From Protoeuglena noctilucae (taxonomy: Eukaryota): a DNA stretch of 64,000 bases. Numbering within the stretch: the first letter of the stretch is position 1; the number at the start of each line of letters is the position of its first letter. The position numbers and the translations under genes are program-made. Positions 7,664 to 60,796 of the stretch are shown one piece after another. The notes under the pieces are model-generated. The model made no database searches, was not told the DNA's origin, and saw only the letters and a program-made list of their open reading frames with translations. The stretch lies in contig OY253679.1 in NCBI GenBank assembly GCA_958009085.1, positions 496,001 to 560,000 on the forward strand, written 5' to 3'.

Positions 7664-10600
7664 ATGAGCGCCGGGGACGTCGAAAGCGTTCCGGCAATCG
7701 TGCCAGAGACGCCAAGCCTCCCGGACCTGCCCGCCACGAGGCAGGTGTACGTATGGGGCGCAGGAGACCTGGGGCAGCTTGGGACGGGAACGAGGTGACG
7801 CTCCGCCGTGCGCTATCCATTACTTGACTGAAAAATTGCTCCTGTCGAGTTGGAGCCTCGCGCGCAAGCTCTCTCGCGCTGCCCGGGACGCTTTTGAGTG
7901 TTTCTAATCGTGAAAGTCCCTCCGTGGCTCGCCTGCGACACATCTTTTGATCCCTGATGGTATCCTGAACAAGACAAATATGTTTGCGCTCCCCATAGTC
8001 AGCAAGTGAGGTCCTTCGACCTGCGCGAGTGACATTGGCTACCTGCTCACGGTGCTGCAGGTCCGCCCAGCTCCAGCCCGTGCCTGTGAAGGCTCTCGCT
8101 GGCGTTGACGTGGTTGAGGTCGCAGCAAGCATCTACAACACAGCGTTCCTGACGTCTCGGCAAGAGCTGTTCCTGGTGCGTGAAGGCCCACAAGGACCTG
8201 CACCTGCAAGCTTTGACTGCCCACGACACGCTACCAGGAACTGGCGGCAGGCCATAGCCTTTCCGGATTGCCCGGTTGTTGCAGGGCAGAGACGACGCAA
8301 TGTCACACCCCGTCCCACTTCTGTACGCAGTGCGGAGCCAATGAGTCGGGGCAGCTGGGTCGCCCAGCCCAGTCGGACGCAGAGCTGACGCCGGTGCGCT
8401 TGACGGCGCTGGACTCCTGCCGCGTCACGCATTGCGCATTGGGTCACTCGCACGTCCAGGCAGCGACAGGTGAGCGGGCACCTTGGTGCGTGCCCTGAGG
8501 GGGACGGACATATGATGTGGGCATTGCGATTCCTTGACATCGAAGGTGGACGGAGGCGGCGTCGCCAACTCGTGGTTTGTGCCATGCGTTCGGTGTGTGT
8601 TCACATGTACAGGTCACTTGTCCGTGCAGATGCTGGGGCCATCGCCACGTGGGGTGCGAGCGAGTTCGGGCAGCTTGGTCAAGGACGAGCGGGAGAAGAT
8701 CAGCCGACCCCGCGCGTCATCAAAGGAACACGGGAGGTGTTCTTCACACAGGCGAGGCTGGGCAGTGCACAGCTTGCGTCTTGGCAGGCCGCAACAGTGG
8801 TGGATTCTGCGACGATGTCCCCATCGGCTATGGTGCTTTGCATTGCCACTGAGCCGTGCTGTGTGCAGGGCACCCTCCAGGACGCCCTGCGCCGCCCTTG
8901 TGCTTTCAGGTTGCATGCGGGGCTGCGCACTCGCTTACGCTGACAGGCAGTGGCCACGTCTTCTCCTTTGGCTGCGGAGCTTTCGGAGCCCTGGGCCTCG
9001 GGGACGAAGACAACCAGGATCTCCCAGTGCTCGTCGAGGTGAGAATTTAGCTGTCGAAATAGGAAACCAGGAGCAGCATCAGAGGACAAGATAAGGCGTT
9101 GACTGCCATGGAGGCAACACTTCCAACCGTGGTTCGTTCTCTCCTGCGCAGCGCCTTTGGCCCGTGGCTGTGGTGCAAGTGTCGTGTGGGGACAACCACT
9201 CGGCGGCGCTGAGCATGCAAGGCGCCGTGTGGACATGGGGCCGCGGCAAGTTCGGGCAACTTGGGTTCGGGCACCTGCGCAACGTCAGGTGACACTTCTC
9301 GTGTGCATTCTTGTCGATTCCGCCGCGCAATGCATCCAGCCTGCAACGCATAAATGCGAGACTAGCCAAGTTGCTGCATTCATCCTTGGTCCGCTGTCCC
9401 TCCTAGTGACCCTGAACTCTTGCGGATTTCTGCACGCAGCGTGCCGGCTCGTGTGGACGCCATGTGGGAGGCTGGCGTGGAGGTCGCGCACATTGCATGT
9501 GGCGGCGACCACACCTGCGCCGTGTCACGCAACGGAGAGGTGTTCACATGGGGCCGTGGGTCTTGGGGGCAGCTCGGTCATGGAACCCTGGCGAACGAGG
9601 TTCTGCCGCGGCAAGTTGTGGCGTTGGCAGGCAAATTTGCGGTTCAGGCGAGTTCACAGAGTCCAAACGCGGAGGGTATTTACAACATGTGCTTACTGTG
9701 CCATGAGAGCAAGTTTGCTTCCCTACCTTCCGCGCAGGCGGCGGCAGGAAGCAGGCATACGCTGGTGCTGACCGTTTCGGGGCGGGTACATGCATTTGGA
9801 AGCGGGGAGAGCGGGCAGCTTGGAACCGGCACGGACGCCATGCATGCATTGCCCGTCCGCGTTCAGGGACTGCGGGGTCTGCATGTTACAAGGCTAGCTG
9901 CAGGAGGGTTGCACTCTTGTGCAGTGGGAGACTTGGGGGCGGGGTGGGGGCCAGCAGGTATTCGAACGGGGCAGGCATCGATGGATAAGGGACCACGGGT
10001 CCCCGGAGCTGGGATGGGATTCCACCGAAGGTGCGCACGCGCACAGCTGGAGGCATTGGTAGCTGAGACTGTGAACTGCCGACAACGTCGTGTCTTACTG
10101 CGTTACCAACGGTCTGTTTATCTTAACGCAGGGAGATGCCCCCTTTGCTGGAGCTTGCCCAAGTGGCGGCAAATCCCTTGGCTCCTCGCAAGGCAGGTGA
10201 CTCACCATCATTGTCAAGGGACGCCATGAAGCGCTCTTGACTTGCAGGCTATGTGTCTTTCTTTTCCTTCTTGCCCCTCACCCTCGCATGCACCCCACAG
10301 TGGCGGCAGCGGCGCGGGCGGTGGAGGATGTCTTCTCGTCCCCAGGAATGATCTTGGCTGGGTTCGCCGTAGAGACACCCACGCCTGTGGACGGGCGTCA
10401 CGGGCTTGGCGCAGGGCCGCGGGTCAGTTCGTGGGAAGACGAGGAAGGCCAGGAGACTCCGGATCTAGCATCGCCATCGGTCATGCGGGCTCGGAGCCGC
10501 ATTAACCCCCACTTCCATCCCCCCGCGACAGGGTACAGGTGAGATCTTCAGCGTTGCCCGGTGGATTCTGTTTTGGCAGGTTTTTTTCGGAGCCCGTTTA

Positions 10601-13600
10601 GTTTCCTGTGTTGGCGCAGCGGGAGCCCCGGAGCCCGAGATACGGCAGCGGGGGCAAGTCGGGGGCGACTCGAGAGCGGCGGGGAAAGTGACATCGACTT
10701 GTTTGGTGAGAGCTATGGTCGCTAGAAGTGGACTCGCGTAGCCTGTGTATCAATCCCCTGCGCTCCATTGTTCCTTACCCGAGGACCGGGGGGCTGGCTC
10801 GCAGGGGAAGCAATTCTATCAAGCGAGCGGTCTGACCTGAACGCTGCGGACGACAGCGCGTGGCATCAACGGCAGTGGGTGGAGACCATCGAAGCCGAGC
10901 CCCACGGCCTGGATATGAACGCTGTGCAGGTGCCTGCGGTGGAGCAGACCCCATGCCACGTACCAAATGGCGGCCTATTTTGCGATTATCTACCTTATCT
11001 ACCTTTTGCGGTCCTCGAGGTGCCATTGCCGAGGTGATATTGTCCTGTATAAGCGCAGGATGTCTTCCGTGCTCTGCTTCGCATCTACTCAGGCGCAGTG
11101 GTCACGGCACTTGGGTCAGCATGTGGGCGACTGCTGGAGGGGATGAAGCGTTCCCTGATTTCCGTGTCAGGAGCACCTGAGCGCGAATGGCTTCCTGCGC
11201 TGCTGGCCGCCTTGCAGAACCCGCTGCACTCTGCAATCGATTCTGGCCCGCGATCGGCCACGGGTGGCCCAGGGCTGTCGGGAGCCATTGGTGAGTGACG
11301 CCACAGAACTCTCCAAAAATCTGCGATGCAACACACCCGATGGATGATGTCACGACGACGCAACCTGCCTGTGCGGCTTCCCACAGCTGCCACGCTGCTG
11401 GAGGGCATCAGCCACGTCGTGTCGAAACTTTCGGTGGACTCCAAGGCAAGGCGTTGCGCATGTTCCTGCTGGTGGCTCACTCTTGCAATCCTTCCCTGAC
11501 AACAAGCGGCGCCACTCCGTGTTGCAGTCTTTACTCGCCGTGTGGATCTCCGAGCTACCTCCTGACGTCGTCGTCATCCGTGTGCTGCGGCCGTTGCACA
11601 CATACGTCACCGAGCTCGTCTTGCAAGCGCCTGTGCAGGCAAGTGCCCCTGCACTGAGCTCGGAAGCGTCAGCGCTCAGCCGCCGCACCGCTAAACCACA
11701 GCACCTGGTTGCGACTGCGATGCATGTGCTTCTGTGCGCAGGGCTGGGAGGCAGTCAGGGAACGCATCTTAATGGCGGCGCATGTCGTGGACACAGTGCA
11801 CCGGGCGTCTGCCCTGGCTGGCGGCCGAGCTCCGCAACCAGTGGGTGTCAGCAGCCCCACCCGCTCCGGCCTCGTCCTTGACAGAGATCCCCTTGACCCA
11901 TGGGCGGAGCAGCACGCCATTCCAGCACAGGAGTTTTACAACCGTGCACTTGGGTGCGGTGGTATTTGTTTCTGCATTTCGCACCGCAGACGGTTTTCGC
12001 TCTCTTGTGGGTTTCAGTGTGAGTGACCCTATAGGCATTTACACCGTCGTGTCACCACAGGACGCTGTCGGACGAGCTGCTTGATTTCGAGTACCGGCAG
12101 TGGGTGTCGTCATCGGCAGGGGAGGACGGCGCCTCTCCCTTGCTACTGAGCTTGTGCCAGGTTCCCTACATGCTCGACTCGGAAACCAAGTCCCGCATCC
12201 TGCTGCTCGAGGTATGGCACGGGAGGCACGTGAACTTAATGGCGGGTCTGCATGTGTGGCGTGCTCTCCTTTGACCGTGGCTCCACCTGCCTTGCGCAGG
12301 CCCTCTACCAGAAACAGCACGAGGTCCGCACGGCACACATCCAAGCGCTGGCGGAGGGCACGCCCCATGACCGGGCCCAGTGGTTGTACGTGCGCGTGCG
12401 CAGGTCACACCTGCTTGAGGACACCCTGCGGCAGGTCGTGCAGAAGAGCGCGGACTTGAAAAAGCCACTGAGGTGAGGCGCTTGATACTGGGTAAGGTTC
12501 TTACTCGAAGTCGGCGGCGCCTTTCTCAATCCCCCTTCGAAGGAACTTCTAGCTACGGGCGCTTTTCTCTGCAGGGTGACCTTCGTGTCAGCAGGGGTGC
12601 AGGAGGAGGGGCTGGACGAAGGCGGTGTGGCCAAGGAATTTTTCCAGCTCCTGGTCCGCGAGCTGGTGGATGCGAGCTACGGCATGTTTGCTCCCACCGA
12701 GGGGGGTCGGTACACCTGGTTCGACACGCGCTCAACGGAACCGCCCGTCAGCTTCCAGCTCGTGGGCATGCTCCTCGGCCTCGCCATCTACAACGGCCAC
12801 ATTCTCGACATCCATCTCCCTCCAGGTGGGTTGTCCTGTCTTCATGCAGCCTGTCACATGCCTCCTTGGCGCGTCATCCACCAACCTGTGCTTGTCGGTG
12901 GTCACAGTCGCGTACAAGAAGTTGCTTGGCGTGGAGCCGACGCTGGACGACTTGCGGGCCGCCTTCCCCACGTTGGCGCACGGCCTGCAGCAGCTCCTGG
13001 ACTACACGGGCGACGTGGAGGCGGATCTGTGCTACATGTTCCGTGCCGACATCGACGTCGGAGGACAGCGGTCAACGGGTGAGTTCAGAGAGCACAGGAC
13101 GGCGGTGACAGCGCAAAGTCCATAGATAGCTGCAAGCCAGCATGCCTTCTCTTGGTGTGTGCTCCGTGGCGCGACCCTTATTGGCCTTGGATGTTGCGTT
13201 GGGCCGAGCATCGCACATTCCCAACCGCTGCTTACAGTGGATCTGGTCCCTGGGGGCGAGCTTATCTCCGTCACGTCCGAGAATCGCGGGCAGTTCGTGG
13301 AGCTCTACGTCCGGCACGTGCTGAGCGCATCAGTGCAAGAGCAGTTTGACGCATTCGCGGCGGGCTTCATGCAAGTGTGTGGAGGGCCAGCTCTGAGCAT
13401 GTTTTCCCCTAGGGAGTTGGAGCTGCTGGTTTGTGGCCTGCCCCATCTGGACTTCGAGGCAAGGCGCCACTTGGAAGAGGTCGCGCCCTGGGCTGGCTTC
13501 CGCCAGTGTATCGACGATTTGATTTCACGTCTTCCTATCCTGGCCTCGCAGGCACTCCAGAAGGCCACGCAGTACGAGGGCGGTTACGGCCCCGAACACC

Positions 13601-14045
13601 CTGTCATCAAGTGGTTCTGGGAGATCGGTGAGGAAGTGCGTGCAAGGCCCTCCCTGGGATTCTCCAGCAGGCGCCACCGCCAAAACGTGCCCGCAACGCA
13701 CCTGATTCTCGCAGTCCACGGGATGTCCTTGGAAGATAAGAAGCGTTTTCTTTCCTTTACTACGGGATGCGACAGGTCCGTGCCTGACTGCTGCCTTGTC
13801 TGCTCCCGCGCCATTCCAGTGAGCCAGCCGCACCGTGCATCTACTCCGTCCACCGCAGAGCGCCCATTGGGGGCCTTGGGGCCCTCCAGCTCGTCCTCCA
13901 ACGTAATGGCGGGGACACAATGCGTCTGCCCACTGCTCACACGTGCTTCAATGTCCTCTTGCTGCCGGAGTATGCGAGCTTCGAGACGCTGCGGGATCGG
14001 CTCCTACTTGCCATCGGCAACGCCCGCGGCTTTGGCCTGCAGTGA
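7664..14045 (+). CDS. RCC1-repeat + HECT E3 ubiquitin ligase (HERC-like), ~20 introns
   Basis: RCC1 repeats ([54 protein letters not shown]) followed by HECT motifs [38 protein letters not shown] and catalytic [17 protein letters not shown]...GFGLQ*. Confidence 0.92.
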
Positions 14046-14297
14046 AGCTCGCCATGAGATCGCCGGGACGCACGACTGCTATTAGATTCTCGTTGCAAAT
14101 ATGCTGTACTTGCTCAGCGTCCCTTCGCTTCCCTCAGGCGCAAAGCAGAGCGGTTGTCTAATCTGCGGCGCCACTGTGACTGTCCAGGTCTTGCCCTTCC
14201 TCCTCAGCTCCCTCCATACGTCATGTGTGACAGCGCATTTTCTCCCGTCCTACCCACCGTCTACTTGTGTGAAGACTGGCTAGATCGACGCCAGCGC

Positions 14298-17295: not shown

Positions 17296-18688
17296 TCACA
17301 TGTGCCCGCCTCCCTCCCGTTCGGAGCCCACCGGAGCCCCCGTCGTGGAGCCCCCAAAGGGCTCCCTACCCACCAGCCTCGTCCCCAGCCCCGACAGCGC
17401 GTGAAACTCGGCCGGGCTGTCCGTCAGGACCCGAGCCGACTGCACGCTCAGCTCCCGCAGCACGAGGGCTGCCGCCATCAGGCTGCGGGTATCGCTGAGG
17501 GGCACGTCTTGCTCTGTGTACCAGTGGCCAGGGGCACAAGGAGCAGCAGTCCGCACGCAACGACCCCACCTCCCGTCGCTTTCTTCCGCCCCCTCGTGCC
17601 TCGCTGCGATGCTTCCGCTGCCGTTCATGCGCTGCGCTGCCCTCAGCTCCTCTCCCAGCCCTGCACTGTGACCACCCCGCACATACACCAACACCCCCCG
17701 CCCCTCCTGCGCAATGCGCCTCATTGCCCGGTGCACATCGTCCCCTGCGTCGGCCCCTCCCGCGGCGAACACGTCGCTCAAGACGCTCTCCCTGCAGAGG
17801 ATGGGCCTGGCCGCACTGAGCTGCCACCACCGCCGCACATCTCAATCAGGGAGGCGCGCAACGCACGCCCGCCAGCCTCGGCGAGCTCGCCGGTGAACGC
17901 GGACCAGCACGTCGCCAGCGCCCCGCACGTCTCCCTTGATAAACGCCAAGTGCTCCTTGCCATCGATCCTGGACCGGAACGCCGCCACCTGGAAGGTCCC
18001 AAACTTGGTGGGCAGGGGCGCCAGAGCGTCCAGGGACACCAACTGCTCGTGGCGCAGGCGGTATCGGACCAGGTCCCTGCAAACCACGAACGGGCCTCGC
18101 GTTCGCACGACGCCTGCCAGGCCAGGACAACACATGGGAGAGGGGTCTTGCAATGACCCGGATCCGGGTCTTGCAATGACCCGGATCTACCCCCACCTGA
18201 TGGTGATGCACTTCAGCCCGTGCTCTTTGGCAAAGGCCTTGAGCTGCGCGGTGCGCATCATGGCCCCGGTGGAGTGGTCGACCACCTCGCAGAGGACGCC
18301 GCAGGGGGCGCATCCCGCCAGCCGCGCCAGGTCGACCGACGCCTCGGTGTGCCCGGGTCGCTCGATGACGCCGAGGGGGCGGGCGCGCAGGGGGAAGATG
18401 TGGCCGGGGCGGTTGAAGTCTCCCGGATGCGAGGACGGGTCGGCCAGGGCGCGGACGGTGAGGGCGCGGTCGGCCGCCGAGATGCCCGTCGACGTGCCCG
18501 CCTTGGCGTCGACGGAGATGGTGAAGGCGGTGTACATGGCCTCCTCGTTGCGGCGGTCGGACACCATCAGGGGCAGGTCGAGCCGGGCCAGGTCCTCCGC
18601 TGTCATGCCCACGCACACCAGGCCGCTCGAGTGGCGCACCAGGAAGGCCATCTTCTCCTCCGTGACCTTCTCCGCCGCGATGATGAGG

Positions 18689-18719
<31 letters not shown>

Positions 18720-19035
18720 GCACCACCACGAACTCCCCCTCGCGCAGGGCCACCACGGCCGCCTCGATGGCGTCGAACCCTGGCAGCGGCTCGCCGTAGT
18801 CCGGCCCAGCGACGAACGCGGCCGAGGGAGGCGCTCCCTCGACGACCGAGAGCACGAACGTCGACACGTGCAGGCGACGGGGCCGCTCCTGCCCGGGGCG
18901 CCAGGCAGACGACCCCATCCGAGCGCAGGGGGCCGGCTGCGGCCCGAGACCGCTACGCCGTATCGCCGACTTAAATCGCTCGATGCAGGCCGCCCCGGAT
19001 GCCCCTCGGCCGCCGCAGCGCGCCGACAGGGACAT
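17296..19035 (-). CDS. RIBA-like riboflavin biosynthesis protein: DHBP synthase + degenerate GTP cyclohydrolase II; likely plastid transit peptide
   Basis: VVVLDDEDRENEGDLI..TAFTISVDA..TGISAADRALT..RPGHIFPL..RPGHTEASVDLARLAG..GVLCEV; then LPTKFGTF..EHLAFIKGD..VLVRVHRESVLSDVF lacking the Zn-binding cysteines. Confidence 0.92.
18143..18187. repeat. Short perfect tandem duplication (gggtcttgcaatgacccggatc x2) inside an intron
   Basis: Two adjacent identical 22-nt copies separated by 1 nt. Confidence 0.85.
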
Positions 19036-19312
19036 CCGTCTGTGGCGTCGCGACTGCGGGACGCGCGCGCTTGATACACGTCGGTAATCCAAGAAAAGGG
19101 TCTCAAATGCAACTCGCGACGTCTGGGGAGGCTGCGCGAGCGCTCCCCGCTGCAGGCAGGCCTCGCAGGGTCTGCCAGTCCATTTGCCCTAAAGCAGAGC
19201 CATGTGAGCCTTATGAGGCCCATTCACGTGCGACGAGGTTTGCTGCTCGATGCCCGTGCCGCGTGCGACGGCATGGTTCACACAAGGCTACATCTACATA
19301 GCTATCCCGTAC

Positions 19313-19391
19313 GCCACCGCGTGCGCATCAGGAGGCGCGGTCCTGCTCGAGGTTTCCCGCTCCTCCGTCATGACCCTCGGCACCACGGGGC
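19313..19391 (-). promoter_or_regulatory. Eukaryotic SECIS element (form 2) in the 3'UTR of the small selenoprotein gene
   Basis: Minus strand: gccccgtggtgc cgagggtc ATGAC GGAGGAGCGG g AAA CCTcgagcAGG a CCGCGCCTCC TGAT gc gcacgcggtggc. AUGAN/NGAN core, helix II with one mismatch, unpaired AAA, CCT/AGG mini-stem and a pairable helix I. Confidence 0.85.
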
Positions 19392-19551
19392 GCAGGGCAG
19401 GACATCCTCCACCAAAACGAAGCTCCTGGACCGGCAAGAGATGCAGCCGAGCAACACAACGCTCGGCAGCCCTGCGTGGCCAGAGCACGGGCCCTGCGGG
19501 AAGTCACAGGCCCACCGAGCTGCCATGCCCCATCCCATGCCACTCGAGAAG

Positions 19552-20079
19552 CTAACTGCTCGAAGACGACTCGACGTGGGCGTCCAGCACGATGTGTGAC
19601 GTGAGGGGCGCGTCGAGCTTCTTGGCCGACTTCAGGCCCATCGAGGTCATCATCTGCGCACATGTGCGGCCTCTGCATCCGGCAATGCGGTCGAAGTGCC
19701 AGGCTGGGACGGGGAGGTGCGGCCCCCGGGCTGGGGCAGGACCATGCTCACCTTGGTGAAGGTGTTCTTCAATCACTTCGCGTGCTCCTCCGGCGTCGCC
19801 TCGACAAACTGCAGCGTGGAGAGGAAATGTCGCGGTTTTTGGGACACACGAGACCACGCGGGCGTCCATCTCATGCCCAGCGAACCCTCACCTCCTTCAC
19901 ATGCTCCCGGAAGCGCTGGTACCGTCCCTTGGATGGTCCCTGCGTCGGCAAAGGATAGACCTCGGATACAGCTCTGACGTGGCCCCTTGCGCGGGCGTTG
20001 GCGCACAGGCACAGCGCTTCTCGCAGCCTACCTCCCCGGCTCCATCCTGGCCGCTGCGCTCGGACGACGAGCAGCTCAT
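19552..20079 (-). CDS. Small (84 aa) candidate selenoprotein; in-frame TGA at 19775-19773 read as Sec
   Basis: Exons 20079-20032, 19939-19892, 19808-19752, 19653-19552, all GT-AG phase 0: MSCSSSERSGQDGAGE|GPSKGRYQRFREHVKE|FVEATPEEHAK-U-LKNTFTK|MMTSMGLKSAKKLDAPLTSHIVLDAHVESSSSS*. SECIS ~160-240 nt downstream of the TAG. Confidence 0.85.
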
Positions 20080-20528
20080 CCTGCCCCTGTCGCCCGTTAC
20101 CAGCAAGCCTACCAAGCCGTCGAGATTGCGCGGATTGCGCGGCAGCACGTTGGGCACGCCGTCCGGGTTCCCCCGCGTGCTGTGTCGAGGAGAGTGGAAT
20201 GCACGGCTGATGTGGGGTGCGGACAGACGCAAACAGACGCGTTGGGGAATAATCGGACAATGCTGCCGGCATCTCTGCCATCTGGCGCATGGAGGGCCCG
20301 ACCGAGCTGCCAGGCCCCTGGTGTTCCTGACACATCAGTGGAACCGCGACCACCCTCTTCGGCCTCTGCGCCTCCTGCCGACGTGCATGTCCCATCCGCA
20401 GCGGCTCGTGGTGTTCCTCCGCGCCGTGGGCAGGAACGCCTTGCGGGTGCGTTGTTCCGGAAACAGGGCGTGGCAGCTGTGAACCTGCGCCGAGGGTGCT
20501 GGCACCGTCCACCATGCCGATGGTAGCC

Positions 20529-33636: not shown

Positions 33637-36026
33637 TTAAAAGAGGCTCCCGATGTCGAGATGAAGTCCGGGCGACTCTAAGGGGCTCATCCCCGGCAAA
33701 AGGTCCAGTCCCTGCGTGCAAGGACATCTCGTATTCTGTAACACCAGCTTGGTGACCCAGTCGCGCGCATGCGGGCCTGTCCCTGCCCGCGTCCCCACCT
33801 CCGACAGGCGCGGAGGCCCCTGCCCCGCCAGCGCCGCCTCCAGGTCCGCGTCGTTCATCGCCATCACGTCCGCGTCCTCCATCATCTTCAGCACGGCCGG
33901 CGACCACGCGTCGTCCTCATCGGTGGGGTCCTCCCCCGACCCCTTGCCGCCCGCCCTCGCACCCCCCGGCAGCTGCGTGGCCGGCTGAGCATCGGCGCGG
34001 AGGACGGCCGAGCCCTGCTGGTGCGTCACGAGGCTGTCCTGCGCGTCCGTCGAGCCTCGGGGGCCGGGCGACATCGGAGCCGCCGCCGACCCCGCTGCCG
34101 CTCCTGCTACCGCTTGGGCCTGCGGTCCGGTCATGGCTGCTCCGCCGTCCGCCCACGACAGCTGGAGGTCCGTGGGAGACGTGCGGCCCGTGTTTGCGGC
34201 GAGGCACACGGGGGCGTCCTCCCATGCACCGACCTCTGGCCTCGGCAGCTCGATGCCACCCAAAGGCGGATGGTGGCTGCCGATCGTCAGTGGGGGAGGG
34301 CGCAGGCCGGAGATGGGGGACGCTCCGAGCATGGGCGGCACGGGGGCAGGCCAGTCGAGAGTGACGGGGGCGTACTTGCCCCTCCCAACGGGTGCCTTGG
34401 CAGGCGGAGATCCGGCAGCTTGGGTCTGGCGTAACTGCGCCTGGATGGAGCGGGAGAGGAAGCGCTTGCCGCCCGCGCAAATGATCGCATGCCCGTGCAT
34501 CGCCCCGCGCAACAGTTTCGGGGCTGAAAGGGAGGAGCCCCACTGCCGCTGCCGCTGCCCGCCCCTCGTCCGCTCACTTCTAGCGCGGCCGCCTGCCTCG
34601 GCGGCGCACCCCACATCGGGACTGCCTGCGGCACGCCACGGAGCTTGGACACGGGCGATCCGACCGTCAGGGCGCTGATGCGGGACAGCGCCGAGGTGTG
34701 CGCCTCGGCGTGGGGCCCGTCCACGTGCATGGCCGTCTGCGCCTCGGACGACGGGCCCAGCGTCGACCCGTTGCCGCTGTCGCCGCCCCGCTCGCCGCTA
34801 TGGTTCAGCGACCCCGACCCCTCCCCGCCCTGGCCCTCCTCTGGCGCCCGGGCCTGGATGCGCTGGCTGCGCCGTGTGGCCTGCGGCTCGCTCGACAGCT
34901 CCGCGCCCACCTCGGCCGAGATGCGCTGCGCGTCCCACTGCACAGCGAGGAGCGCGTCGTGTCAAGTCTCACGCGCAGCCGCAGCGCCCGCGGGGTAGCC
35001 TGGGCTAAAAACCGTGACTCCACGCCCGTGGCTTTCGCTCACCTCGCCGGGGAAGTTGAGCTTCGCCTCGCCGCCCTTGACGCGCACCGCCGCCTTGTCG
35101 TACGCGCGGGCCGCCTCCTCTGCCGTGTCAAAGGTGCCCAGCCACAGGCGCACGCCCTTGGTGGGGTCCCGGATCTCAGCTGCCCACTTGCCCTGCGGCA
35201 GAAGGATTAGAGCTCCACTCACGCGTAGGCGAGGCACACACACAAGTGATCTCACCCCGTGCACAACGACCGTGGCATGGCCCACAGAAGCGCCAGCACC
35301 CACCCACGGCCTCTGGCGCACGCCGCGGAACTGGGAGCCCCGCGCGGGGCGGTTCGGGTCGCGCGTCCCCCGGCTCTTCCCCTTGCCGCTCTTGCCGCCC
35401 TTGCCCTTCTTGCTGGGCGTCCCGGGGGACATGGCCATGGCGTCTGGCCACATCGCGTCCTGTAGCAGGGGAGGCCACCACGTCGTCACACGCGCAGCTG
35501 CGACATGCGGCTGGCAGCTGCAGCCTAGCTTCTCCTGAGCGGCAACTCACCTCCGGGAACCCGTACGGCAGGCCAGCCCACCCTGGCATGGGCATCATGG
35601 GCGGGGACCCGCCGGCAGGGAGCGTCGGCACATCTGGCCCCGCCACGTGCTCGAGGCGCGAGTCCCGCGACAGCATGGACGGGCGCGTCGTCAGGGGCCC
35701 CTCCTGAGCGGAGAAGCGCGACGCCTGGGGCGACCGGCCCTGCGAGCCCGGGCAAGGGGACCATCGCGCGACGGCCGGGATCACGTCGGCGCGTGCCACG
35801 CGACAGCGACGCGAGGCCTCGCCTGACCCCCATTGCCGGACAGCTGGCGTCGGAAGGGCTGGGGCGAAAACTCCGAGTCTGAGCATGCGCGCTTGGGGGA
35901 AGGCACGTCCACTTCTAAGTCGGCATGGCTGCGCTTGCCAGCCTGCTGCAGGGAGCGCGGAGATGTCAAGGTAGGCGAGGCTCGCGGAGGGAGGGGTCCG
36001 GGCGGCCATCCCGAGGCGAATGACAT
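33637..36026 (-). CDS. AP2/ERF-domain transcription factor (single AP2 domain)
   Basis: [59 protein letters not shown] (~35345-35045); flanks are low-complexity. Confidence 0.92.
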
Positions 36027-46062: not shown

Positions 46063-46262
46063 NNNNNNNNNNNNNNNNNNNNNNNNNNNNNNNNNNNNNN
46101 NNNNNNNNNNNNNNNNNNNNNNNNNNNNNNNNNNNNNNNNNNNNNNNNNNNNNNNNNNNNNNNNNNNNNNNNNNNNNNNNNNNNNNNNNNNNNNNNNNNN
46201 NNNNNNNNNNNNNNNNNNNNNNNNNNNNNNNNNNNNNNNNNNNNNNNNNNNNNNNNNNNNNN
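46063..46262. other. Assembly gap (200 N) hiding the 3' ends of two convergent genes
   Basis: Run of N. Confidence 1.
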
Positions 46263-49200
46263 GCCCGGCGATCATGGCCCCCGTCCCGGGGAGCGGGGCG
46301 CCATCATCGTGCCCGCACCAGACGACACAGGTGGCCTTGGAGGTGTAGCCGGCGAACCACGCGTCCCTGCAGCACAGCGAAACCCACACCTTGCTCTTGT
46401 GCGTTGCTGAGCCACCATGCACGTGGGGGTCACTCCACACCGCCCTGCGCTAACCCCGCACCTGTAAGCATCGCTCGTGCCAGTCTTCCCCGCCACCTGC
46501 CCCGCACCCCACCCCCGGAGCAAGTCCCGCCCCAGGCTCCTCCCGGCCGCCTCCACCAGGCACGCATGGAGCTCCCGGCACGCGTGGGCCGACACGACAC
46601 GCTCGCGCGCGTGGGCCGCCCGCGCCATCACCTCCCCGCTGGCGTCCTCCACGCACACGACGCAGTGCAGGGGGCTCGCGAACCCACGCGCCCCCACCGC
46701 GTTGAACACGGCCGCCAGTTCCACCGGAGCCATCTCGCTCGCCCCCAGGCAGAGTGAGAGCGTGGCGCGCAGGGGGCTCCGAACACCCAGCCTCCTCGCC
46801 AGCCCCGCCACGGCGTCCACGCCCACGGCCGTGCCCACCTTGACGGTCGGGATGTTGAGCGACTCGGCCAGCGCCTGCCGCGCCGTCACCCGGCCCCGGA
46901 AGCCGCGGCTGTAGTTGGCCGGGGTGTAGTCCCCCTCGAGCAGCCCGGGCCCCTCGTCCCCGTCATCGCCACCCCCTGCCCTCACGCGCTGCCACGACAC
47001 GCCCGCGTTCCCCGCCCCCCGCCTTGCCGACAGCAGGCGCTGCACCGACCCCCGCGGAACCGCCCAGCCGACCTCGCCTGCCCCGCTGTCTCCTTCCTCC
47101 AGGGTCCCCGCCGGCTCCACCCCCGTCAGGTACCGCCGCCGTAGGGCGTCGTCGCGCTGGGCCAGTTCGGCATCCAGCTCTCCCCTCGGCATCACCCGCC
47201 AGGCCCCGGACGTCTCTTTGCGGAACAGCACGTCCTCGTCGACCAGCACGCTGTCGGCGCGCAGCAGGCCCCGGTCAAAGGCCGCCAGGTAGACGGCGGG
47301 CTTAAAGGCGCTCCCCGGGGCACGCCGGGCGTCCGTGGCGCGGTTGAAGGACGACGCGGCGAAGTCGCGAGAGCCGACGACCGCCCGCACTTCGCCGCCC
47401 CCGGGGGACACCACCACCGCAGCCGCCTGGCAGGGGGGCTGGCGGCGCCAGGGGGCGTGAGGCCCTACATCCTCCTTCACCAGCGCCTCCACGGCCTCCT
47501 GCGACCCGGGACCACCGTGCCATTGCACGCACAGCTCTGGCACACGCTCGCGGCGCTGGGCAGCGGACCAGGGCGCACCTGCAGGTCGAGGTGGACGGTG
47601 GTGCGGACACGCAGGCCGCTCGCCCGGGCCAGGCGCTCCTCGCCCAGCAGCGTGCGGAGCTCGAAGAGGGCCTCCTTGACGAAGAAGGGGGCGCGGTGGG
47701 GGCTGCCACGCCGGGGCATCCTCTGAGGCGGTACGCCTGCGGGGCCGAAGCAGAGCGCGCATGACTCAGCGCCTCTGCCGCACGGCAGAGGGTGCGGAGC
47801 GAAGTGTGCAGTATCTTGTCACCTTTGCGTGGGTACGGAGACCGCGTGGGAGGTGCGTCCGCGGACTTGTACAGGAGCGAGTGGGGCAGCCCCAGGGCCG
47901 CGATGCGCTTGGCTTCGTTGCGTGAGATGACCCGCATCTGGGCCATGCAGTCCAGCACCTGGAGCCGGCCTGCGAGCAAGGCAAGGGGCAGCACGACATG
48001 GAGACGCTGGTCAGATACAGCGAGCGCTGCAGGGCGCGCGAGCGGCGAAGTGGGACCAGGGAGGCTCAGCAGACGGCTACCCATCAGAGCAGCCCCGCAT
48101 GCCCGTCACCCCGGTTGCCGGCGGCAGGGGAGTGGAAGGGCGTGCGATGCTCGGGTCCCGGGAGCATGCCGGCGAGCGTGGCAGCCTCGTTCAAGTCCAG
48201 GTCCGCCGGGCTCTTGCCAAAGTAGGCGGCCGCCGCCCCTGCCACGCCGTAGATGCCGTGGCCCCAGTAGACCGCGTTGAGGTAGTGCTCTGCGCCCACA
48301 ACGTGGTCCCGCGTTCTCACGCGGCGCAGGGCAGCCGGCGGGCGCAAGCGTGCAACCCGCGCAGTCGCCAGCATGCGCACCCAGGATGTCGTGCTTGGCC
48401 ATGTGCTGCTCCAGGACCAGGGACAGGTAGAGCTCGGCGGCCTTGCGCGAGAGGGTGCGCGAGGGCGACAGCAGCGCGTTCTTCACCACCTGCTGCGTGA
48501 TGGTGGACCCGCCCCCCAGGCGCCCCAGGGACAGCACGGCCCGGGCCATCCCACGGGGGTCCACGCCCGCGTGCTGGAAAAAGCGGCGGTCCTCGCTCGC
48601 CAGGACTGCGGAGGGTCAAGCAGGCGTGCGCTGCTGGTCGGGCCCCTCCGCACACAACCACCAGCGCAACAATCTCGCAGCTGGGTCAGGTGCTAATGAG
48701 GGTCCCGGCTGGCAGGTCCCGTGCATCGTCCCAGTCCTTACCGGCGCTCTGCATCGCCCATGACACCCTGTTGAGGGGGACAGACTGCTGGGAGAAGGCA
48801 GCCACCAGGCGCCCGTGCATGTCCAGCAGCACGTTTGGCTGGCCCGAGGAGGCTCCCGCGGCTGAGCCCGGGTCGGGCCGGCCTCTGTCCAGCAGCGCCC
48901 GCCACCTGCAGCGGCCACGCAAAACGACGCTCGCGCTTAGGCCGCCCCGCAGCGTGGCAGCCACAGGCGAGACACTGTCTTCAGGTCACCGCACCTGCCC
49001 TCCCATCCGGGGCCCATGCTCCCCAGGAAACGAGCGCCGTCCCACGCGAAGAAGACGGCCATGAGGCCCATCAGCAGCGCGGCACTCCTCCGCAGAACGT
49101 GACTCGCGACGTGCTTCCCACCGCCCCCCCCTGAGCCACGGTTGCCCCCAAGTACGTAGTCCTCTCCAGCGTTAACTGCAAGACGCAGGACCCTCAGGGA

Positions 49201-53487: not shown

Positions 53488-56400
53488 ATGGTCCGGATAG
53501 CGCTTGCGCTTGACAGGTAGCCCTTCACGCGCGTGGGCGAGTCACGGCGCACGTTCGTGTCATGCCTAGCTGGTCAAGGGACTCGCACCTGCCACCACGC
53601 GCTCCCCGTCGCCTTCCCGCTTGCAGCGCGTGCGCCTCCAGCCCCGAGTCGCATGCGGAGGCCATCCAGGCGGTATGCAAGCTCATCTCATTCGTGCGAC
53701 GGGAGTTTCCCTCCGCGCTAGGTAAGGCGCCATTCCGCCGCACGCACGGGCGGCGGAAGCCGCCCGAACAGAGGCCTTGCCATTCGCCCCTCGCGGCGCG
53801 CGAGCAGCCCGGTCCGCTCCTCCGTCGCAGTGTCCGTGCACACGAATGCAAGGTTGGTACACGGCGAGTGGCCCGCCGACCCCACGTTGCTGCGGGACTT
53901 TCAGGAGGTCACGACATGGACCACGCTGTCCGCGCTGCAGGCCCTGCAGTCCTGCTTTGCCGCCCACAACCACGCGGCTGGACCAGGTGCCGGTCGCTCT
54001 CGGTCTGCCATGCATGGCTTCGCTGACATGTTCAGGCCTCAACGCGCACATAGCCCCATGCCGTAGGGGCACGTGTGTGAACCACGCCACGCCATCGTAT
54101 CGCCCGCAGGGAGCCCGGGGTCCGCGGGCCGCTCCCTTCGCGCCACGCCTTCCCGTCTGGCAGCTTCAGGGGCATGGTCCCTGCTCAACACGGTGATGGA
54201 CAGGCTGCGTGAGAGCAACACCCAGGACGCTTGCCTGGTGGTGCTGTGCACAGCGCTGGCCTCATCAGCACCCGCGAGCAAGGAGGACTCGATCGCCAAG
54301 TGTGTCTCACGGGCAGCGACGAAGCTCAAGGCCACCGGGGGGGCGCTGCTGCTGGTGGACACCTCAGCGCCACGGTGAGCAGGGGTGGAGGCTCGCCTGC
54401 GCCTGCCTTGTCCGGCAGTTGAGCCCCAGTCGGGTTTTCAGCCCTCCCACTGACACGTACTTCTGCTGCAGGGTTCTCCCTGGAGTACGCTCCCCTGAGT
54501 CGCTGACCTTCCCCGAACCCCACGCGAGCTGGCTGGACCGCTACGCTGTGGTGGTGTCCTCAGGTGGGTGCGAGCCTTGTCGGTCAGCGTCACTTGCATT
54601 GTGACCAGCGTGTCTGTGATGCAGCCTGACTGAGTCCCTCAGCCATGCTGCCCTGTGCCTCGTCAGCAGACATGTTTGGATGGCTGATTGGGCCGCCGCT
54701 GGGTTTGCCCGCAGTCCGGCTGAACCAGAGCGACGCATGCCTGCCATGGATGCACATCGTCCGCGACATCCTCAAAGCCGCGCGCTCCGGGGCGCCGCTC
54801 CCGTCAGTGCCTGAAGAGCACGTGCATACGCGCCGAGTGGTGATGCACCTGGTGAGGCGCGCGAGGGCGGATGTCATGGATTGAGTCATGCATGACTCAC
54901 GGAGAGGGTGCCAGACACGCAGACCAATGGCTACCATCGCGTCACTGATGGGACATACTAGCTGTATATGCAGCCCCAGATGTCTAGCCCCACCCGCTGT
55001 GTGTCCTGCAGGGCTCAAAGGATGACTCGCGCCTGCTGGGGCTCCTCCACATACCACGTGAGGGCGCGGAAGCGACCCAAAGCGGCGCCCCCAAGAGCGG
55101 AGCGCGGACGGGTGCGTGGAGTGGCGGGCCTGGTTCTCAAGCCCTTGACGGTGGTGACGAGGCAGAGACGATGCCCCCCACATGCCCCGAGCAGCAGCAG
55201 CGGGGACCTTCCGACCCAGTTCGGCTGCCCGGCGATGCGCTGTGCGTCAGGGGCGTGGTTCCGCTTGCGTCCATGCGAGGGGCTTGCGATGCAGCTGCCC
55301 TGGACCCATCTGCCCAGTTCCCAGCCATTGCCACGGGGCCCATGGCCGCCCGCGAGGGGCACACGCAGCATGAAAGCGTGGTGCCGAGTTCCCGGGGCCT
55401 TCCGGAATTGCTGCGGCACCTGGTGGCTGCCAACTGTGGGGCGGTGGTCGCGTGCATGGACAGTGACACGCTGTGGCTGCTGGAGCCCCTGTCGCCCACG
55501 CACCCCACGGCTCTCCTCACGCGACTGTGGTACCTGCCGGACTCCCTGGAGCCGCTGCCCTCGATGGCGCCGGACCTCGCCCAGGGGCAGGCACGGTCTT
55601 TGGAGCACCGCGCGGTGCGCCAGGCCTGCCAGGCAACCCCAGGTGCGCCAGCGGCCAGCGGTGCGCAGGTGCAGGGGGCGCTGAGGGAGCTGGCCGCGCG
55701 GGTGCTGCAGGACGCGTCGGAGCACCCGGCGTGCCGGGTGGTCGACCCCCTCGGGGCGCACCCCTGGGCCCTGGGCGGGCAGGGCGCCACGGCGCGCCAA
55801 CGGTGCGTGGCGTTGGCGGGGGTCGGAGCGAGTGGCGGCGGAGCTGGAGTCGGGCGGACCCCCAGCGCGGGAGTGCGGGTGGCAGACCCCGTGACCCCCG
55901 CGACGGCGCTGCTCCCACCGACCCCGGGCGGAGAGGCGCTGCGTCCCACGGAGGTCGTCAAGGGCGTTACCGTCGCTCCGCCGGCGTTTCTAAATGACGA
56001 GGCAGTCGATGCGCTGGTGGAGGAACAGCGGGAGGCGTTGAGGGCCATGCGAGAGAGGTGAGGACAGAACGTGACATGGGTCAGTTGGGTGACACTGCAG
56101 ATGTAGACAGCAGAAGAAGAGTGCATCATAGCGCACATCGTCGTCCTGCCTCGCAGGCACAAGAAGGAGGCAGTGCTGGAGGCGGTGCTGGCGGAAGCGT
56201 CCCAACACGCACCCCCAGGCACGGACCGCAAGCGCCGGGCGGCTGGAGTGCTGCTGGCGCTGGCAACGTGCGTGTCCCGGCGCGCCAGGAACGCTTGCAA
56301 CGACATCCTGGCGGGGATGAGGTCGGCGGCGAGCTACGTGGTGCCCGGGGTGATGGAGCGCATCGCCGGCGAGGAGCGCGCCGGCAGCGAGGGGCGACGG

Positions 56401-59400
56401 GTGGCGGATGTGCTGGGGCAGGGCGCAGCGATGCAGGCGCTGACGAGGATCAAGACAGAGCTGGGCTCTCGGGGCGCGGGGGCCGTGCGGGATGCCTACC
56501 TTGCTCTGGCGGCCGCGTGCCTCGAGGCGGTGGCGTGGGCAGTGGCAGCCGAGGGCGCCGGTGGAGATGCGGCACGGAAAGGCCGGGGCAAGGGTCGCCG
56601 AGCGATGGCCCACCTTCAGCTCGTGGAGCTTGTGATGCAGAAGGTCCGCCTGTCGGTGCTCAGCGGAGGGGCCGGCAGCGGGCACGCGGTCAACGACTTT
56701 GCGTCTGCGTTTGAGGGCCTCTGCGGGGCGTACCGCGACCGGGGCTTGGCTCGCCTGGTGGAGCGGCTCCAGAAGGACATGGTGGGGACTGGGGAACGGG
56801 AGATGGAGCAGGATGGGCTGGCGGGGACGTTTGCAATCGCGGACGACGCGGGTGACCCGGGTTCCAGCGGAGAGAACGACCCGGATGTCACCAACGGGCC
56901 TGCTCCTGAGGGCCGGGTGAGCATGGGTGTCGGTTGCGCCCGTGGGCTGAGATGGGCAGCGTCTGCGTATTCGCATCGGTGCACTGCCTTTTGCACTGCC
57001 TTTTCTCAACTCCCCTGCCTGTGTCTCTGCTGCAGGGCGCCCCGGCCGCAGCCACGCTCAGCGACGGCGAATGCCACAGCGCCTGCAAAGGCAAGGGCGG
57101 CGCGCCTGCCGCCCCAGCCCCGGCCCAGCGCACCCGCCAACAGGGCAAGGGCGCGGCGAGGGCGGGTGGCGCGGCCGCGGAGCTGGAAGCGGCCAAGTTC
57201 AAGAAGCGGCGGGGGTTCCGAACGCGAATGGTGCTTCGGACGGTGCAAGCGGGCGCGGCGGGGGACAACGCGGCTGGCCCGCGCAGGGCCGGGCCGCGTG
57301 GAGAGGACGGGCAGGGGCAGGGGCAGGCGACGGGCGAGGGAGGGTCCGGGTCGTCATCAGAAGACGAGCCGGGTGGCTTCATGGACGCGGGGCGGGCGGC
57401 ACGGATGCGTGGCGCCGGTGCGGGTCCGGGCGCGGGTGCGGACGCAGGGGCCCCGCCGGCCGCAGGGCAGGTGCCCCGAACGCCCACTGGTGGGGCGCGT
57501 GCCAGGCGGGCCCGGGTGGCGTGGCTGAGGTCCGAGGACTCTGCATCGGATCTCGAGGGGTCCGGCACGGTGGTGGGGGCGACGCCGGAGATGCCCGGGC
57601 GGTGGGGTGCAGGCCGTGACTTGGCTGAAGGGTGGGGTGCTGCAGAAGGGCTCGGGGCTGGCGGTCACCGCCTGGACTTTGACGCTGTGGCTGGGATGGG
57701 GCCGGACGACGACGTCAGTCGGGGGTGGAGCGGGGGCGAGGCTGGGATGCGGGCAGAGGGTGGCGAGGAGCGTGGGGCGCGAGGCGGTGCGGTGGGTGCG
57801 CTCAGCGGGTCCGCTGAGGTCGGCGGTGACGAGGTGGCCAGCGACTGCGCCCAGAGATGTGGCGACGTGGGCGGCGGGGAGTCGTCTTCGGGCATCGATG
57901 CGCCGTGGGACGCGGCAGATTGTGGCTGGGAGCGGGGGGCTGACGGGGGTGTGCTGGGAGACGAGGCGCTGGGACATGGGGGTGTTGTGGGGTTCGACCT
58001 GGATGGGGAGGAGTCGCATGGGGCAGCCCCAGGGACGGGTGAAGCGGGACCGACGGGTTCCGACACGCCTTGTGAGGGTGCCCGAGATGCGGAGGCCGGT
58101 GGTGATGGGCAGACGGACGGCGGGGATGGGGCTGGGCAGGCGGCGCCGACGGCCCTTCCCGATCCACTGACAGAAGCTGAGACAAAGAGGCTCAGGAAAT
58201 GGGCTCTGTCTGTCGTGGCAGGCTTCCGCAGGCTACGTAACTCCAGCTACTTTAGTGCAGCTTTCCAGCTTTTCTTGAGCATCAAATTTGGATGCGAGCA
58301 GTGTGGGCATTCACCCCTGGGATGCCAGGCATGCCATGCCGCCTGCATGGGGTGCGGGAAGTGTCGATACATGGGCTGCCCGGGGTGCTTTTTGGGCGTC
58401 CTTCTGGCCCTGTACTACCGCGGCTTGGACGTGACGCCGGAAGTGGAGGCTTTTGGCAAGAGCCGGGGCTTTGAGCCATGGCCCCCCCGGCCAGCAGCTC
58501 CGGTGGAGCTGGGCCAGGCCGCAACTGGGGTGGCATTGGCAGAGGGGGCAAGGGCTGAGGCTGGCCGGGAGAGGAGTGGGGCTGTGGTGGCATCGGTGGA
58601 GGGGGCGAGGGCTGACCCTGACAGGGAGGGTCATGTGGGACTGACGGGGGCAGGAGAGGCAGTATCGGCGGGGGCAAACACTGGAGAGGGCGTGGTTGGC
58701 GATGAAGGGCCGGGTAGGGGCGCGGGCACAGTCGGCGGGGGAGTGATGGGGCAGGAGAGCGGGGCGGTGTGGGGAGGAGACATGGAGATGTATGGCGGGG
58801 CGTCTTTGGCAGAGGGGTGCGAGGGGCTGGAGTGGGGTGGAGGGGGCGAGGCCATGGCAGCCGGGGTGTCCCAGCCCGGGGCCTTAGTCGCATTCTCGGA
58901 GCATGCCGAGGGTGGCCCCTCTCGCGTGGTCCCTGGCCCTGCCTCGCCACTGCAGGGCGCCCCAGCAGGCGCACGCGAGAGCGTCTCCCTCAACGCCTCT
59001 GGTCCGGATGGAGAGGCCGGTGTCACGGGCAGGGCGACCACGGCCTGTGCGTCGGTGAACCTCCCTCCAACGGCGGACAGCGCAGGCGACGGGCGCGCAT
59101 CGCCGGGCACGCAAACCTCGACTGCGACCTCGCCCGCCAGCTCCGGCAGTCGGTCCGAGGCAGGAGAGGATGCCAGCGACGCGGAGGGGCCGGCCGCGAG
59201 TGAGGTGTCGCCCACTGTGTGGGGGTCGGTGCAGGCGCAGGCACCTGGGGCACAGGTGCCAGATGGGACCGTCGCCGAGACGCCTGGCGGGTGCCAGGAC
59301 CGGCGATGCGAGGCCCCTCATGTAGCTGGGGCCGCGGGCTGCTGTGGCGCATCCGATGCAGGGCACGCCCACCAGCAGGCACTGCCAGCACCGGCTGTCC

Positions 59401-60569
59401 CGGGCCCTGAGATCATCGCGGACCATAAGGCGCTGAAGGCGTGGGCCATGCACGTTACGAACGGTTACGAGGCCTTTTGCACACCAGGAACACTGATTCA
59501 GGCCATCGCGAACATCAAGCGCGTCAAGTTGGGGTGCAACCAATGCAATGGTTCGCGCCTCGGTTGCCCTGCATGCCGCAAGCTAAATTTCGGGCGCCCC
59601 ATGTGCCCGCGATGCCGCATAGGAGACAAGTGTTGCCGGTCGTGTTTCCTGGCGGTGCTGCTGTCCCTTTACCTCCGTGGCTCAGACGTGACACCGGATG
59701 TGGCAGAAGTGGGCAAGGGTCGCTATGAGCCGTGGCCGCCTCGGCCGGCAGCTGTCAGCGGGGTCAGCTGTGGCGCAGAGGTCGGGGGCACGGCGGTGAG
59801 GGCGGGGCGGCAGACGGGGGCAGGGGAGGGCCCCATGCAGGGTGGCGTGGCGGGGCCCACGGGGCTGGCGGACTCTGGCACGCCACAGAGGGCAAGCGGG
59901 CGTGGGGAGAAGCGAGAGGGGGCGGTGGCTGCGCGTGGGCGGGGGAAACGGGAGCGTGAGCAGGGGCATGACGCGGGGGCGGCCACGCGTGCACGGGTCA
60001 CGCGTGCAAAGGCCGGGCCTGAGGCAGGGCCCGCTCCCACGGGAGAGGAGGGGTCGGAGCCCCATGCCCGGGGGAAGCGGGGGACATCGTCTGCGCCGGG
60101 TGCCGGCCAGGTCAAACGCGCTCGCCTGGCGCCCCGGGATGGGTCAGAGGTCCACACCGGCGACGGTGCCACTCGACGGGCCCCGAAGCGCGCGGCTGGA
60201 GCCGTGGCTAACGCCGCTCTCGCCATGCACAGCGCGAGGGCCAATGGCGACATGCTGCGGGGTCTGGCAGAGAGCCTCGCCAGTGGCCACCCGCAGTTCC
60301 AGACCCCCAGCGTCATCAGCGACGCGTTGGCGCATTATCCCCGCGTCCAGCTGGGCTGCTTTAAGTGCCGGACGAACGATGGCTGCTCCAGCTGCCAGAT
60401 GGCCTCCCTCGGCTGCAGCAAGTGCCGGCACACGTCGTGCCGTTCGTGCCTCCTCGCCGTGCTGCTGACGCTGCTGGTGCGGGAGGGGACGCCCTCTGCA
60501 GCACTCGGCGAGCACGCTACGAAGACGTACGGCACGTGGCCGATGCAGGGCGCCGCTGGGCCCTCTTGA
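53488..60569 (+). CDS. Large protein, probably Treslin/TICRR-like at the N-terminus, with a disordered C-terminal half carrying three 8-Cys repeats
   Basis: Starts MVRIALALD (vWA-like first strand as in Treslin); helical block VRDAYLALAAACLE..QLVELVMQKVRL..GG..F..YRDRGLARLVERLQKDM resembles the Sld3/Treslin domain; phase-0 splice (~56914 to ~57035) joins it to the large terminal exon. Gene is well supported, family call is tentative. Confidence 0.55.
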
Positions 60570-60796
60570 GCGGTGTTTGTGGGCGCTCTTTAGTAGAGTG
60601 GCGTGTGGCAGCGAGCGGGCTGCCAGCAGATGTGTGACGTTCTTTGTCTTCGAAGTAGAGCGCGCGTCGCAAGGCACCTAGATAGCGAGAATTGCTCTCA
60701 ATAGCAAGTGATTGAAGCCAACGAACAGAACATGTCATCTCTGCCTTTGCTCAGCGGGCCTCCCACCGCTGCCCTACCACCTCCGCGCCCCTCACT

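Follow-up and report, generated by a model that had tools for sequence, protein, structure and literature searches.

A candidate, apparently lineage-restricted selenoprotein encoded by a spliced and expressed gene of Protoeuglena noctilucae

Introduction

New families of eukaryotic selenoproteins are rare, and most of those known are thioredoxin-fold oxidoreductases. The established machinery for selenocysteine insertion in eukaryotes comprises SBP2 and eEFSec with Sec-tRNA. Here we ask whether a short, spliced frame on the minus strand of Protoeuglena noctilucae DNA, broken once by an in-frame TGA, is a selenoprotein gene or simply ends at that codon, and whether its product belongs to any family already described. 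The frame lies in a 64,000-nucleotide stretch of contig OY253679.1, which was analysed as a whole and is referred to throughout as the window (its first base is position 1, and all coordinates are given on this scale). A preliminary description of this stretch, made from its letters, had proposed that the locus hides an 84-residue selenoprotein specified by a UGA and a SECIS element in the 3'UTR, and that the product might be related to small plant proteins having a cysteine at the position of the selenocysteine.

Large selenoproteomes have been reported for marine picoplanktonic green algae (PMC7539508, PMC6627142, PMC7455551), and the Prasinoderma genome paper, in the portions of its text available to us, describes many selenoproteins alongside a complete peptidoglycan pathway and cites Liang et al. 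for the numbers of selenoproteins in Archaeplastida (PMC7455551). Jiang et al. 2020 list 42 algal selenoprotein families, among which three are new (PDI_e, AhpC_b, SymSEP), and, according to the available sections of that paper, require BLAST matches with conserved regions flanking the Sec-TGA (PMC7539508). The survey of Liang et al. 2019, as far as its available text describes it, relied on Selenoprofiles (PMC6627142).

Gene structure and transcript evidence

The gene consists of four coding exons (Table 1) with lengths of 48, 48, 57 and 102 nt, each divisible by 3 and all in phase 0, and every coordinate that had been given for these exons from the letters alone proved correct. Joined together, the exons provide 84 sense codons and a TAG, the sole in-frame interruption being the TGA at 19775-19773 (codon 44), after which come 7 codons, intron 3 and an exon of 33 codons. 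No ATG precedes the start codon in the spliced mRNA, an A stands at -3, and no Met occurs in the in-frame stretch upstream of the start as far as position 20334. Numbered along the spliced mRNA, the ATG, UGA and TAG lie at positions 166, 295 and 418 respectively, and the SECIS match occupies positions 593-652.

Eight public sequencing runs contain a 1-kb stretch of the locus: four are marine metatranscriptomes belonging to a single study, and the other four come from one organism; the fraction of its sampled words recovered was 0.53-0.56 in the former, while all were recovered in the latter. Contigs from three of the four RNA runs (a single study) and from one of the four other runs were compared with the locus. 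Each RNA run yielded one contig, of 703, 693 and 694 nt, extending from 20244 or 20241 to 19269 or 19276. These contigs skip exactly the three predicted introns, leaving gaps that read CT..AC on the plus strand and GT..AG in the direction of the gene; they show 0 base differences and 0 indels relative to the window, retain the TGA, and extend past the hairpin proposed as the SECIS element. Because the RNA contigs use the predicted junctions and keep the TGA, the introns are real and the TGA is part of the mature mRNA rather than being spliced out; neither of the two artefacts that the preliminary description had named as capable of overturning its reading, a base-call error at the TGA or its removal by splicing, was seen. 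The contig from the DNA run spans the locus unspliced and may be the assembly's own source; the TGA is base-for-base identical in the RNA study, which is separate from the DNA runs. The gene is spliced and expressed in natural seawater communities.

Table 1. Features of the locus, in window coordinates.
Feature	Position	Strand	Basis and remarks
Transcribed unit	19269..20244	-	span of spliced RNA contigs, ~703 nt spliced; contig ends, not mapped RNA ends
5'UTR, 165 nt, without ATG	20080..20244	-	first ATG of spliced mRNA is the CDS start
Coding exon 1, 16 codons, ATG 20079-20077	20032..20079	-	gene model and RNA contigs (joint 19938/20031, cut +1)
Intron 1, 92 nt, GT..AG	19940..20031	-	gene model and RNA contigs
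Coding exon 2, 16 codons	19892..19939	-	gene model and RNA contigs
Intron 2, 83 nt, GT..AG	19809..19891	-	gene model and RNA contigs
Coding exon 3, 19 codons, contains the UGA	19752..19808	-	gene model and RNA contigs
In-frame TGA at codon 44, putative Sec codon	19773..19775	-	unchanged in RNA contigs (3 runs) and DNA contig
Intron 3, 98 nt, GT..AG, downstream of the TGA	19654..19751	-	gene model and RNA contigs
Coding exon 4, 33 codons and TAG 19554-19552	19552..19653	-	gene model and RNA contigs; GC3 0.91, log-odds +0.46 per codon
3'UTR, 283 nt in RNA contigs	19269..19551	-	no coding signal in any frame
Putative SECIS element, type II	19320..19379	-	full-length SECIS_1 match (model positions 1-64), 23.6 bits; hairpin of -41.7 kcal/mol

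Coding signal downstream of the UGA

The open frame that follows the UGA is by itself unremarkable, given that at 67% G+C the chance of encountering no stop in 40 codons is about 40% (arithmetic from base composition), and we therefore built a codon table from 1145 codons of the window that are covered by Pfam matches. Scored in this way, the 40 codons after the UGA reach +0.54 log2-odds per codon in frame, compared with -1.68 and -0.61 in the other two frames, and 40-codon windows of the Pfam-supported training genes have a mean of +0.43 (sd 0.27). The 5'UTR, the 3'UTR and the three introns belonging to the same mRNA score -0.14 to -0.62 per codon (first frame). Among 20,000 random stop-free 40-codon windows, a set which includes real genes, 1.2% attained the observed score.

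The base composition of this segment bears the same mark. Of the 120 nt after the TGA, 70 are G or C, and among the 40 codons 37 end in one of these bases (hypergeometric P = 1.8e-8; GC1/GC2/GC3 = 0.40/0.42/0.93), so that the bias toward G/C-ending codons previously remarked upon in the 7 codons and the exon that follow the TGA is upheld. The third-position signature preceding the UGA is weaker (P = 2.7e-3). The 7 codons that separate the UGA from intron 3 have G or C at 7/7 third positions and at 0/7 first positions (P = 3.1e-4), a periodicity that speaks for uninterrupted reading past the UGA over a new start at the ATG-ATG of exon 4. Judged by this statistical signature, which is distinct from conservation, protein-coding sequence appears to continue in frame beyond the UGA.

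A SECIS-like hairpin in the 3'UTR

A canonical SECIS had been described in the 3'UTR, and the core motifs of such an element are present. The AUGA (19371-19368), unpaired AAA (19355-19353) and UGAU (19330-19327) motifs, all on the minus strand, fall on conserved columns of the SECIS_1 alignment; in the mRNA the SECIS core is located 306 nt past the UGA, with the element beginning 173 nt past the TAG and lying inside the transcript. The minimum free energy fold is a single long hairpin, in which we recognise by hand a lower stem, a non-Watson-Crick quartet (UGAC/UGAU), a helix II made up of 5 + 4 pairs round one A-G mismatch, the AAA, which is unpaired 11 nt above the quartet, and a 3-bp apical mini-stem that assigns the element to type II. 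Where the term canonical falls short is the profile score, since 23.6 bits is under the Rfam gathering score of 35. The corresponding E-value was 0.13 in a 2-kb search against all 4227 families and 0.7 in an 11-kb search, the lowest of any family there. An Rfam run over the whole window, for which stricter filters apply to long input, listed no SECIS, the 19379-19320 site included, and says little on other SECIS elements in the window.

How often such a hairpin might arise by chance depends on how much structure is demanded. Compared with shuffled sequences, the hairpin gains only modestly in stability (z = -1.84; 12 of 200 shuffles gave an equally stable fold or a better one), and for the motif pattern alone the window has 3 occurrences where 0.77 would be expected. 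A structural descriptor requiring 9/10 helix II pairs finds one site on both strands (128 kb), namely the 19379-19320 hairpin, and a mean of 0.07 per window in 100 dinucleotide shuffles, a figure that is optimistic because the descriptor was written after the match had been seen. Simple arithmetic from 0.07 per 64 kb gives a chance of ~1e-4 that such a hairpin would fall within the 283 nt of this 3'UTR and on the correct strand. Directly after the UGA there is no hairpin of the kind expected for a Sec redefinition element (z = -0.08).

A second contig from the DNA run contains an 18-nt exact match to the 5' arm of the SECIS lower stem (window 19377-19394) and also a 24-nt match, with 2 differences, at window 19134-19157. 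These matches probably reflect chance similarity of G+C-rich sequence, a related hairpin at another genomic site being the less likely source.

Predicted properties of the product

The predicted product has 84 residues, a mass of 9.2 kDa, a pI of ~7.8 and a GRAVY of -0.74. Its selenocysteine would be at position 44/84, in mid-chain rather than C-terminal, shortly after what reads as a T-P-E-E helix cap, and in the context E-E-H-A-K-U-L-K-N, three residues after His41 (H-x-x-U). The only cysteine is Cys3, 41 residues from Sec44, with no partner cysteine nearby, and the 84-residue product includes no CxxU or CxU redox motif, in agreement with the earlier statement that neither CxxU nor UxxC is present. 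Helix propensity is predicted for residues 25-43, 50-65 and 73-78, and no membrane segment is found in the product (maximum 19-residue hydropathy 0.35). The protein is probably soluble and helical, having two or three predicted helices, and its Ser/Gly-rich N-terminus would be disordered. As a guess, an exposed selenol and the neighbouring histidine might constitute a small redox-active or metal-binding site.

Searches for homologs

Homology queries were single exons, in which the exon-3 pieces contain 19 real residues and the exon-4 pieces 33; with queries of this length the negatives are weak, and we estimate that a 19-residue match would not be significant against 1.84 billion sequences unless nearly identical. 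No relative in either Sec or Cys form, and with it no case of conservation across the UGA, was returned by any single-exon search. The three exon pieces matched nothing in Pfam at E <= 10 other than CagY_M (exon-3 piece, E 0.22, below the cut-off of that family), which was taken as chance, and nothing in NCBIfam at E <= 10; a PDB sequence search gave no match. There was no domain match to glutathione peroxidase, MsrA, TXNRD or other enzyme selenoproteins among the exon pieces in Pfam and NCBIfam, and 84 residues is too short for enzymes of the glutathione peroxidase, MsrA and TXNRD types. Within the 64-kb window, none of tRNA-Sec, SBP2, eEFSec, SPS, SecS or PSTK was seen.

Larger sequence collections gave similar results. 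In a word-indexed search of 5.8 billion clusters, an exon-3 piece in which Cys replaced Sec had no candidate of 28-90 aa, and of 15 candidates at longer lengths none reached E <= 10. The corresponding exon-4 search returned only an identical 32-aa ORF, which clusters with a prokaryote-style ORF of 74 aa that runs across intron 3 of this DNA, and the ESM Atlas likewise contains the identical 32-aa exon-4 ORF and no look-alike. A phmmer search of 1.84 billion representatives, using a 30-aa exon-3 piece that carried the same Cys replacement, produced 3 matches comprising 22, 4 and 5 matched stretches; as repeated weak matches add up in tandem-repeat proteins, such as those of 793 aa and 722 aa, these were rejected along with the third, a protein of 7917 aa. 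Two metagenome-contig loci obtained with the exon-4 query were rejected because they matched its intron-coded filler rather than the exon. Viral contigs contained no instance of the degenerate pattern PEEHAK[U/C]LKN, and the main texts of papers gave no match to an 11-residue exon-3 peptide. The 19-residue Cys-form exon-3 queries accordingly turned up no counterpart, in either the 5.8 billion clusters or the 1.84 billion representatives, of the small Cys-bearing plant proteins envisaged in the preliminary description, although distant Cys homologues may have escaped queries of this length.

Comparison with known selenoproteins

Small selenoproteins that have neither a thioredoxin fold nor a CxxU motif are represented by SELENOK and SELENOS, which possess an N-terminal membrane helix and a Sec near the C-terminus. 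The product described here shares their small size and lack of CxxU, whereas it has no membrane segment and its Sec would be central. Rdx/thioredoxin-like selenoproteins (SELENOW, H, T, M and F) are defined by a CxxU or CxU motif. They too are small and carry one Sec for which a redox role is presumed, as we suppose here, but their defining motif is absent from the present protein.

A parallel in gene architecture is offered by the selenoprotein genes of Ostreococcus, which, as is proposed here, combine an in-frame UGA in a nuclear spliced gene with one 3'UTR SECIS having an AUGA/AA/GA core (PMC2375036). In the available text of that study, one ATGA-type SECIS is noted per species and most SECIS elements carry G before the UGA core, in contrast to the A found here, and none of the families it lists shows sequence similarity to the present product (PMC2375036). 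Lobanov et al. 2007 further report three Ostreococcus selenoproteins of unknown function (PMC2375036), and these hypothetical selenoproteins 1-3, found only in picoplanktonic green algae, share both of these traits with our candidate. Compared by eye with the portions of that paper available, hypothetical selenoproteins 1 and 2 have ~165-190 residues and a C-terminal CUG/CUGR, in contrast to 84 residues and a mid-chain HAKULK, and hypothetical selenoprotein 3 is hydrophobic with a GLUN motif, unlike the product predicted here, whose maximum hydropathy is 0.35. A precedent for an algal selenoprotein confined to one lineage is SymSEP, which is described as restricted to Symbiodinium and as having a Trx-like domain and widespread CxxC homologues (PMC7539508), whereas for the present protein the searches above found no domain or homologue. 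In line with the preliminary description, which had seen no resemblance to a known selenoprotein family, the exon pieces have no domain match and the product differs from all three Ostreococcus proteins.

Evaluation of alternative explanations

Taking these observations together, we consider it likely that the locus is a genuine nuclear selenoprotein gene whose 84-residue product contains Sec44. An mRNA of ~700 nt is spliced from four exons, its first AUG opening an 84-codon frame with a UGA at codon 44; the putative type II SECIS downstream would recruit SBP2 and eEFSec with Sec-tRNA, UGA-44 would be decoded as selenocysteine, and translation would continue for 40 codons to the TAG. If the UGA were instead an ordinary stop, the gene would specify a 43-aa micropeptide, the hairpin would be a chance SECIS look-alike, and the downstream codons would be the relic of a longer ORF truncated recently. 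This reading would account for a SECIS score under the curated threshold, for a stop-free run of a length that is common by chance in G+C-rich DNA, and for single-exon searches that found no homologue to show conservation past the UGA. We nevertheless regard it as distinctly improbable, as the coding signature is stronger after the UGA than before it, an intron downstream of the UGA is kept in phase, a hairpin of this kind would seldom arise by chance in so short a 3'UTR on the right strand, and environmental RNA of a separate study, distinct from the DNA runs, shows the same TGA. A bicistronic mRNA, in which a 43-aa ORF1 stops at the UGA and a 33-aa ORF2 starts at the two ATG codons that open exon 4, has a parallel in the polycistronic expression reported in green algae (PMC7896298, as represented by the part of its text available). 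It is, however, very improbable: ORF2 shares the frame of ORF1 and starts just 7 codons past the UGA, those 7 codons are themselves periodic, both products would be unusually small, and the SECIS would be left unexplained.

With a selenoprotein gene as the preferred reading, the remaining question is that of family. The protein could belong to an existing one, either a Cys-containing plant or algal family or a listed algal selenoprotein, the link having gone undetected by the exon searches, whose 19 and 33 real residues afford low power. We think this unlikely, given that no Pfam or NCBIfam match at E <= 10 was obtained bar the chance CagY_M, no PDB match, and no word-sharing candidate of 28-90 aa, and that Ostreococcus hypothetical selenoproteins 1-3 are clearly different in sequence. 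In addition, the pipelines of the Jiang and Liang surveys need similarity to known proteins or profiles, on the evidence of their available descriptions, so that an orphan selenoprotein would be missed by both (PMC7539508, PMC6627142). As no family is detectable for the product, it looks like a lineage-restricted (orphan) selenoprotein, and we give roughly even chances to the fuller proposal that it represents a previously undescribed lineage-restricted family, consisting of an 84-residue soluble helical protein in which a His-x-x-Sec pair on one helix would be the sole reactive centre. The protein is apparently novel, as judged from the single-exon and literature searches described.

The preliminary reading of the locus as a hidden 84-residue selenoprotein relying on a UGA and a 3'UTR SECIS stands in the tests made here, while the plant Cys homologues that it envisaged were not found by the single-exon searches. 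The gene is a candidate with good support for encoding a new selenoprotein, apparently restricted to its lineage, which would use the ordinary eukaryotic recoding mechanism. If confirmed, a small lone-Sec protein without a thioredoxin fold would widen the known chemistry of selenoproteins, and a marine picoalga would have recruited selenocysteine and a SECIS into a young orphan gene, one that is transcribed in the sea. Furthermore, similarity-based selenoproteome surveys would systematically miss such genes, and algal selenoproteomes would be under-counted, to the extent that the available descriptions represent these surveys (PMC7539508, PMC6627142).

Genomic context of the locus

The window has a mean G+C of ~67% and contains spliceosomal introns. 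Directly downstream of the candidate gene and on the same strand is a RibB/RibA gene (17299-19188, minus strand; DHBP synthase 1.3e-81, GTP cyclohydrolase II 1.9e-17), whose long ORF starts ~100 nt or less from the end of the selenoprotein transcript, a very tight spacing, while a cyclophilin gene is situated upstream on the opposite strand. An AP2 DNA-binding domain (1.1e-10, ORF 34965-35546, minus strand) and an SDE2 C-terminal domain (2.1e-25, ORF 60800-61501, minus strand) belong to ordinary nuclear genes and support a plant-lineage host. A penicillin-binding-protein transpeptidase domain (1.9e-20) in ORF 46275-47765 (minus strand), beside a 200-N gap at 46063-46262, fits the peptidoglycan pathway reported, in the part of the source available, for some green-lineage algae (PMC7455551). 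Together, the domains, introns, G+C content and marine metatranscriptome transcripts are consistent with a marine green-lineage picoalga.

Two further regions stand out by their composition. At 9366-14082 (plus strand), RCC1 repeats followed by pieces of a HECT domain mark a HERC-like ubiquitin ligase gene, over which G+C is 0.61 as against ~0.68 elsewhere in the window. Over 56-60 kb (window 56000-60600) the GC skew is strongly positive, at +0.21 to +0.25, in the same place as an open frame of 1219 codons (56910-60566, plus strand).
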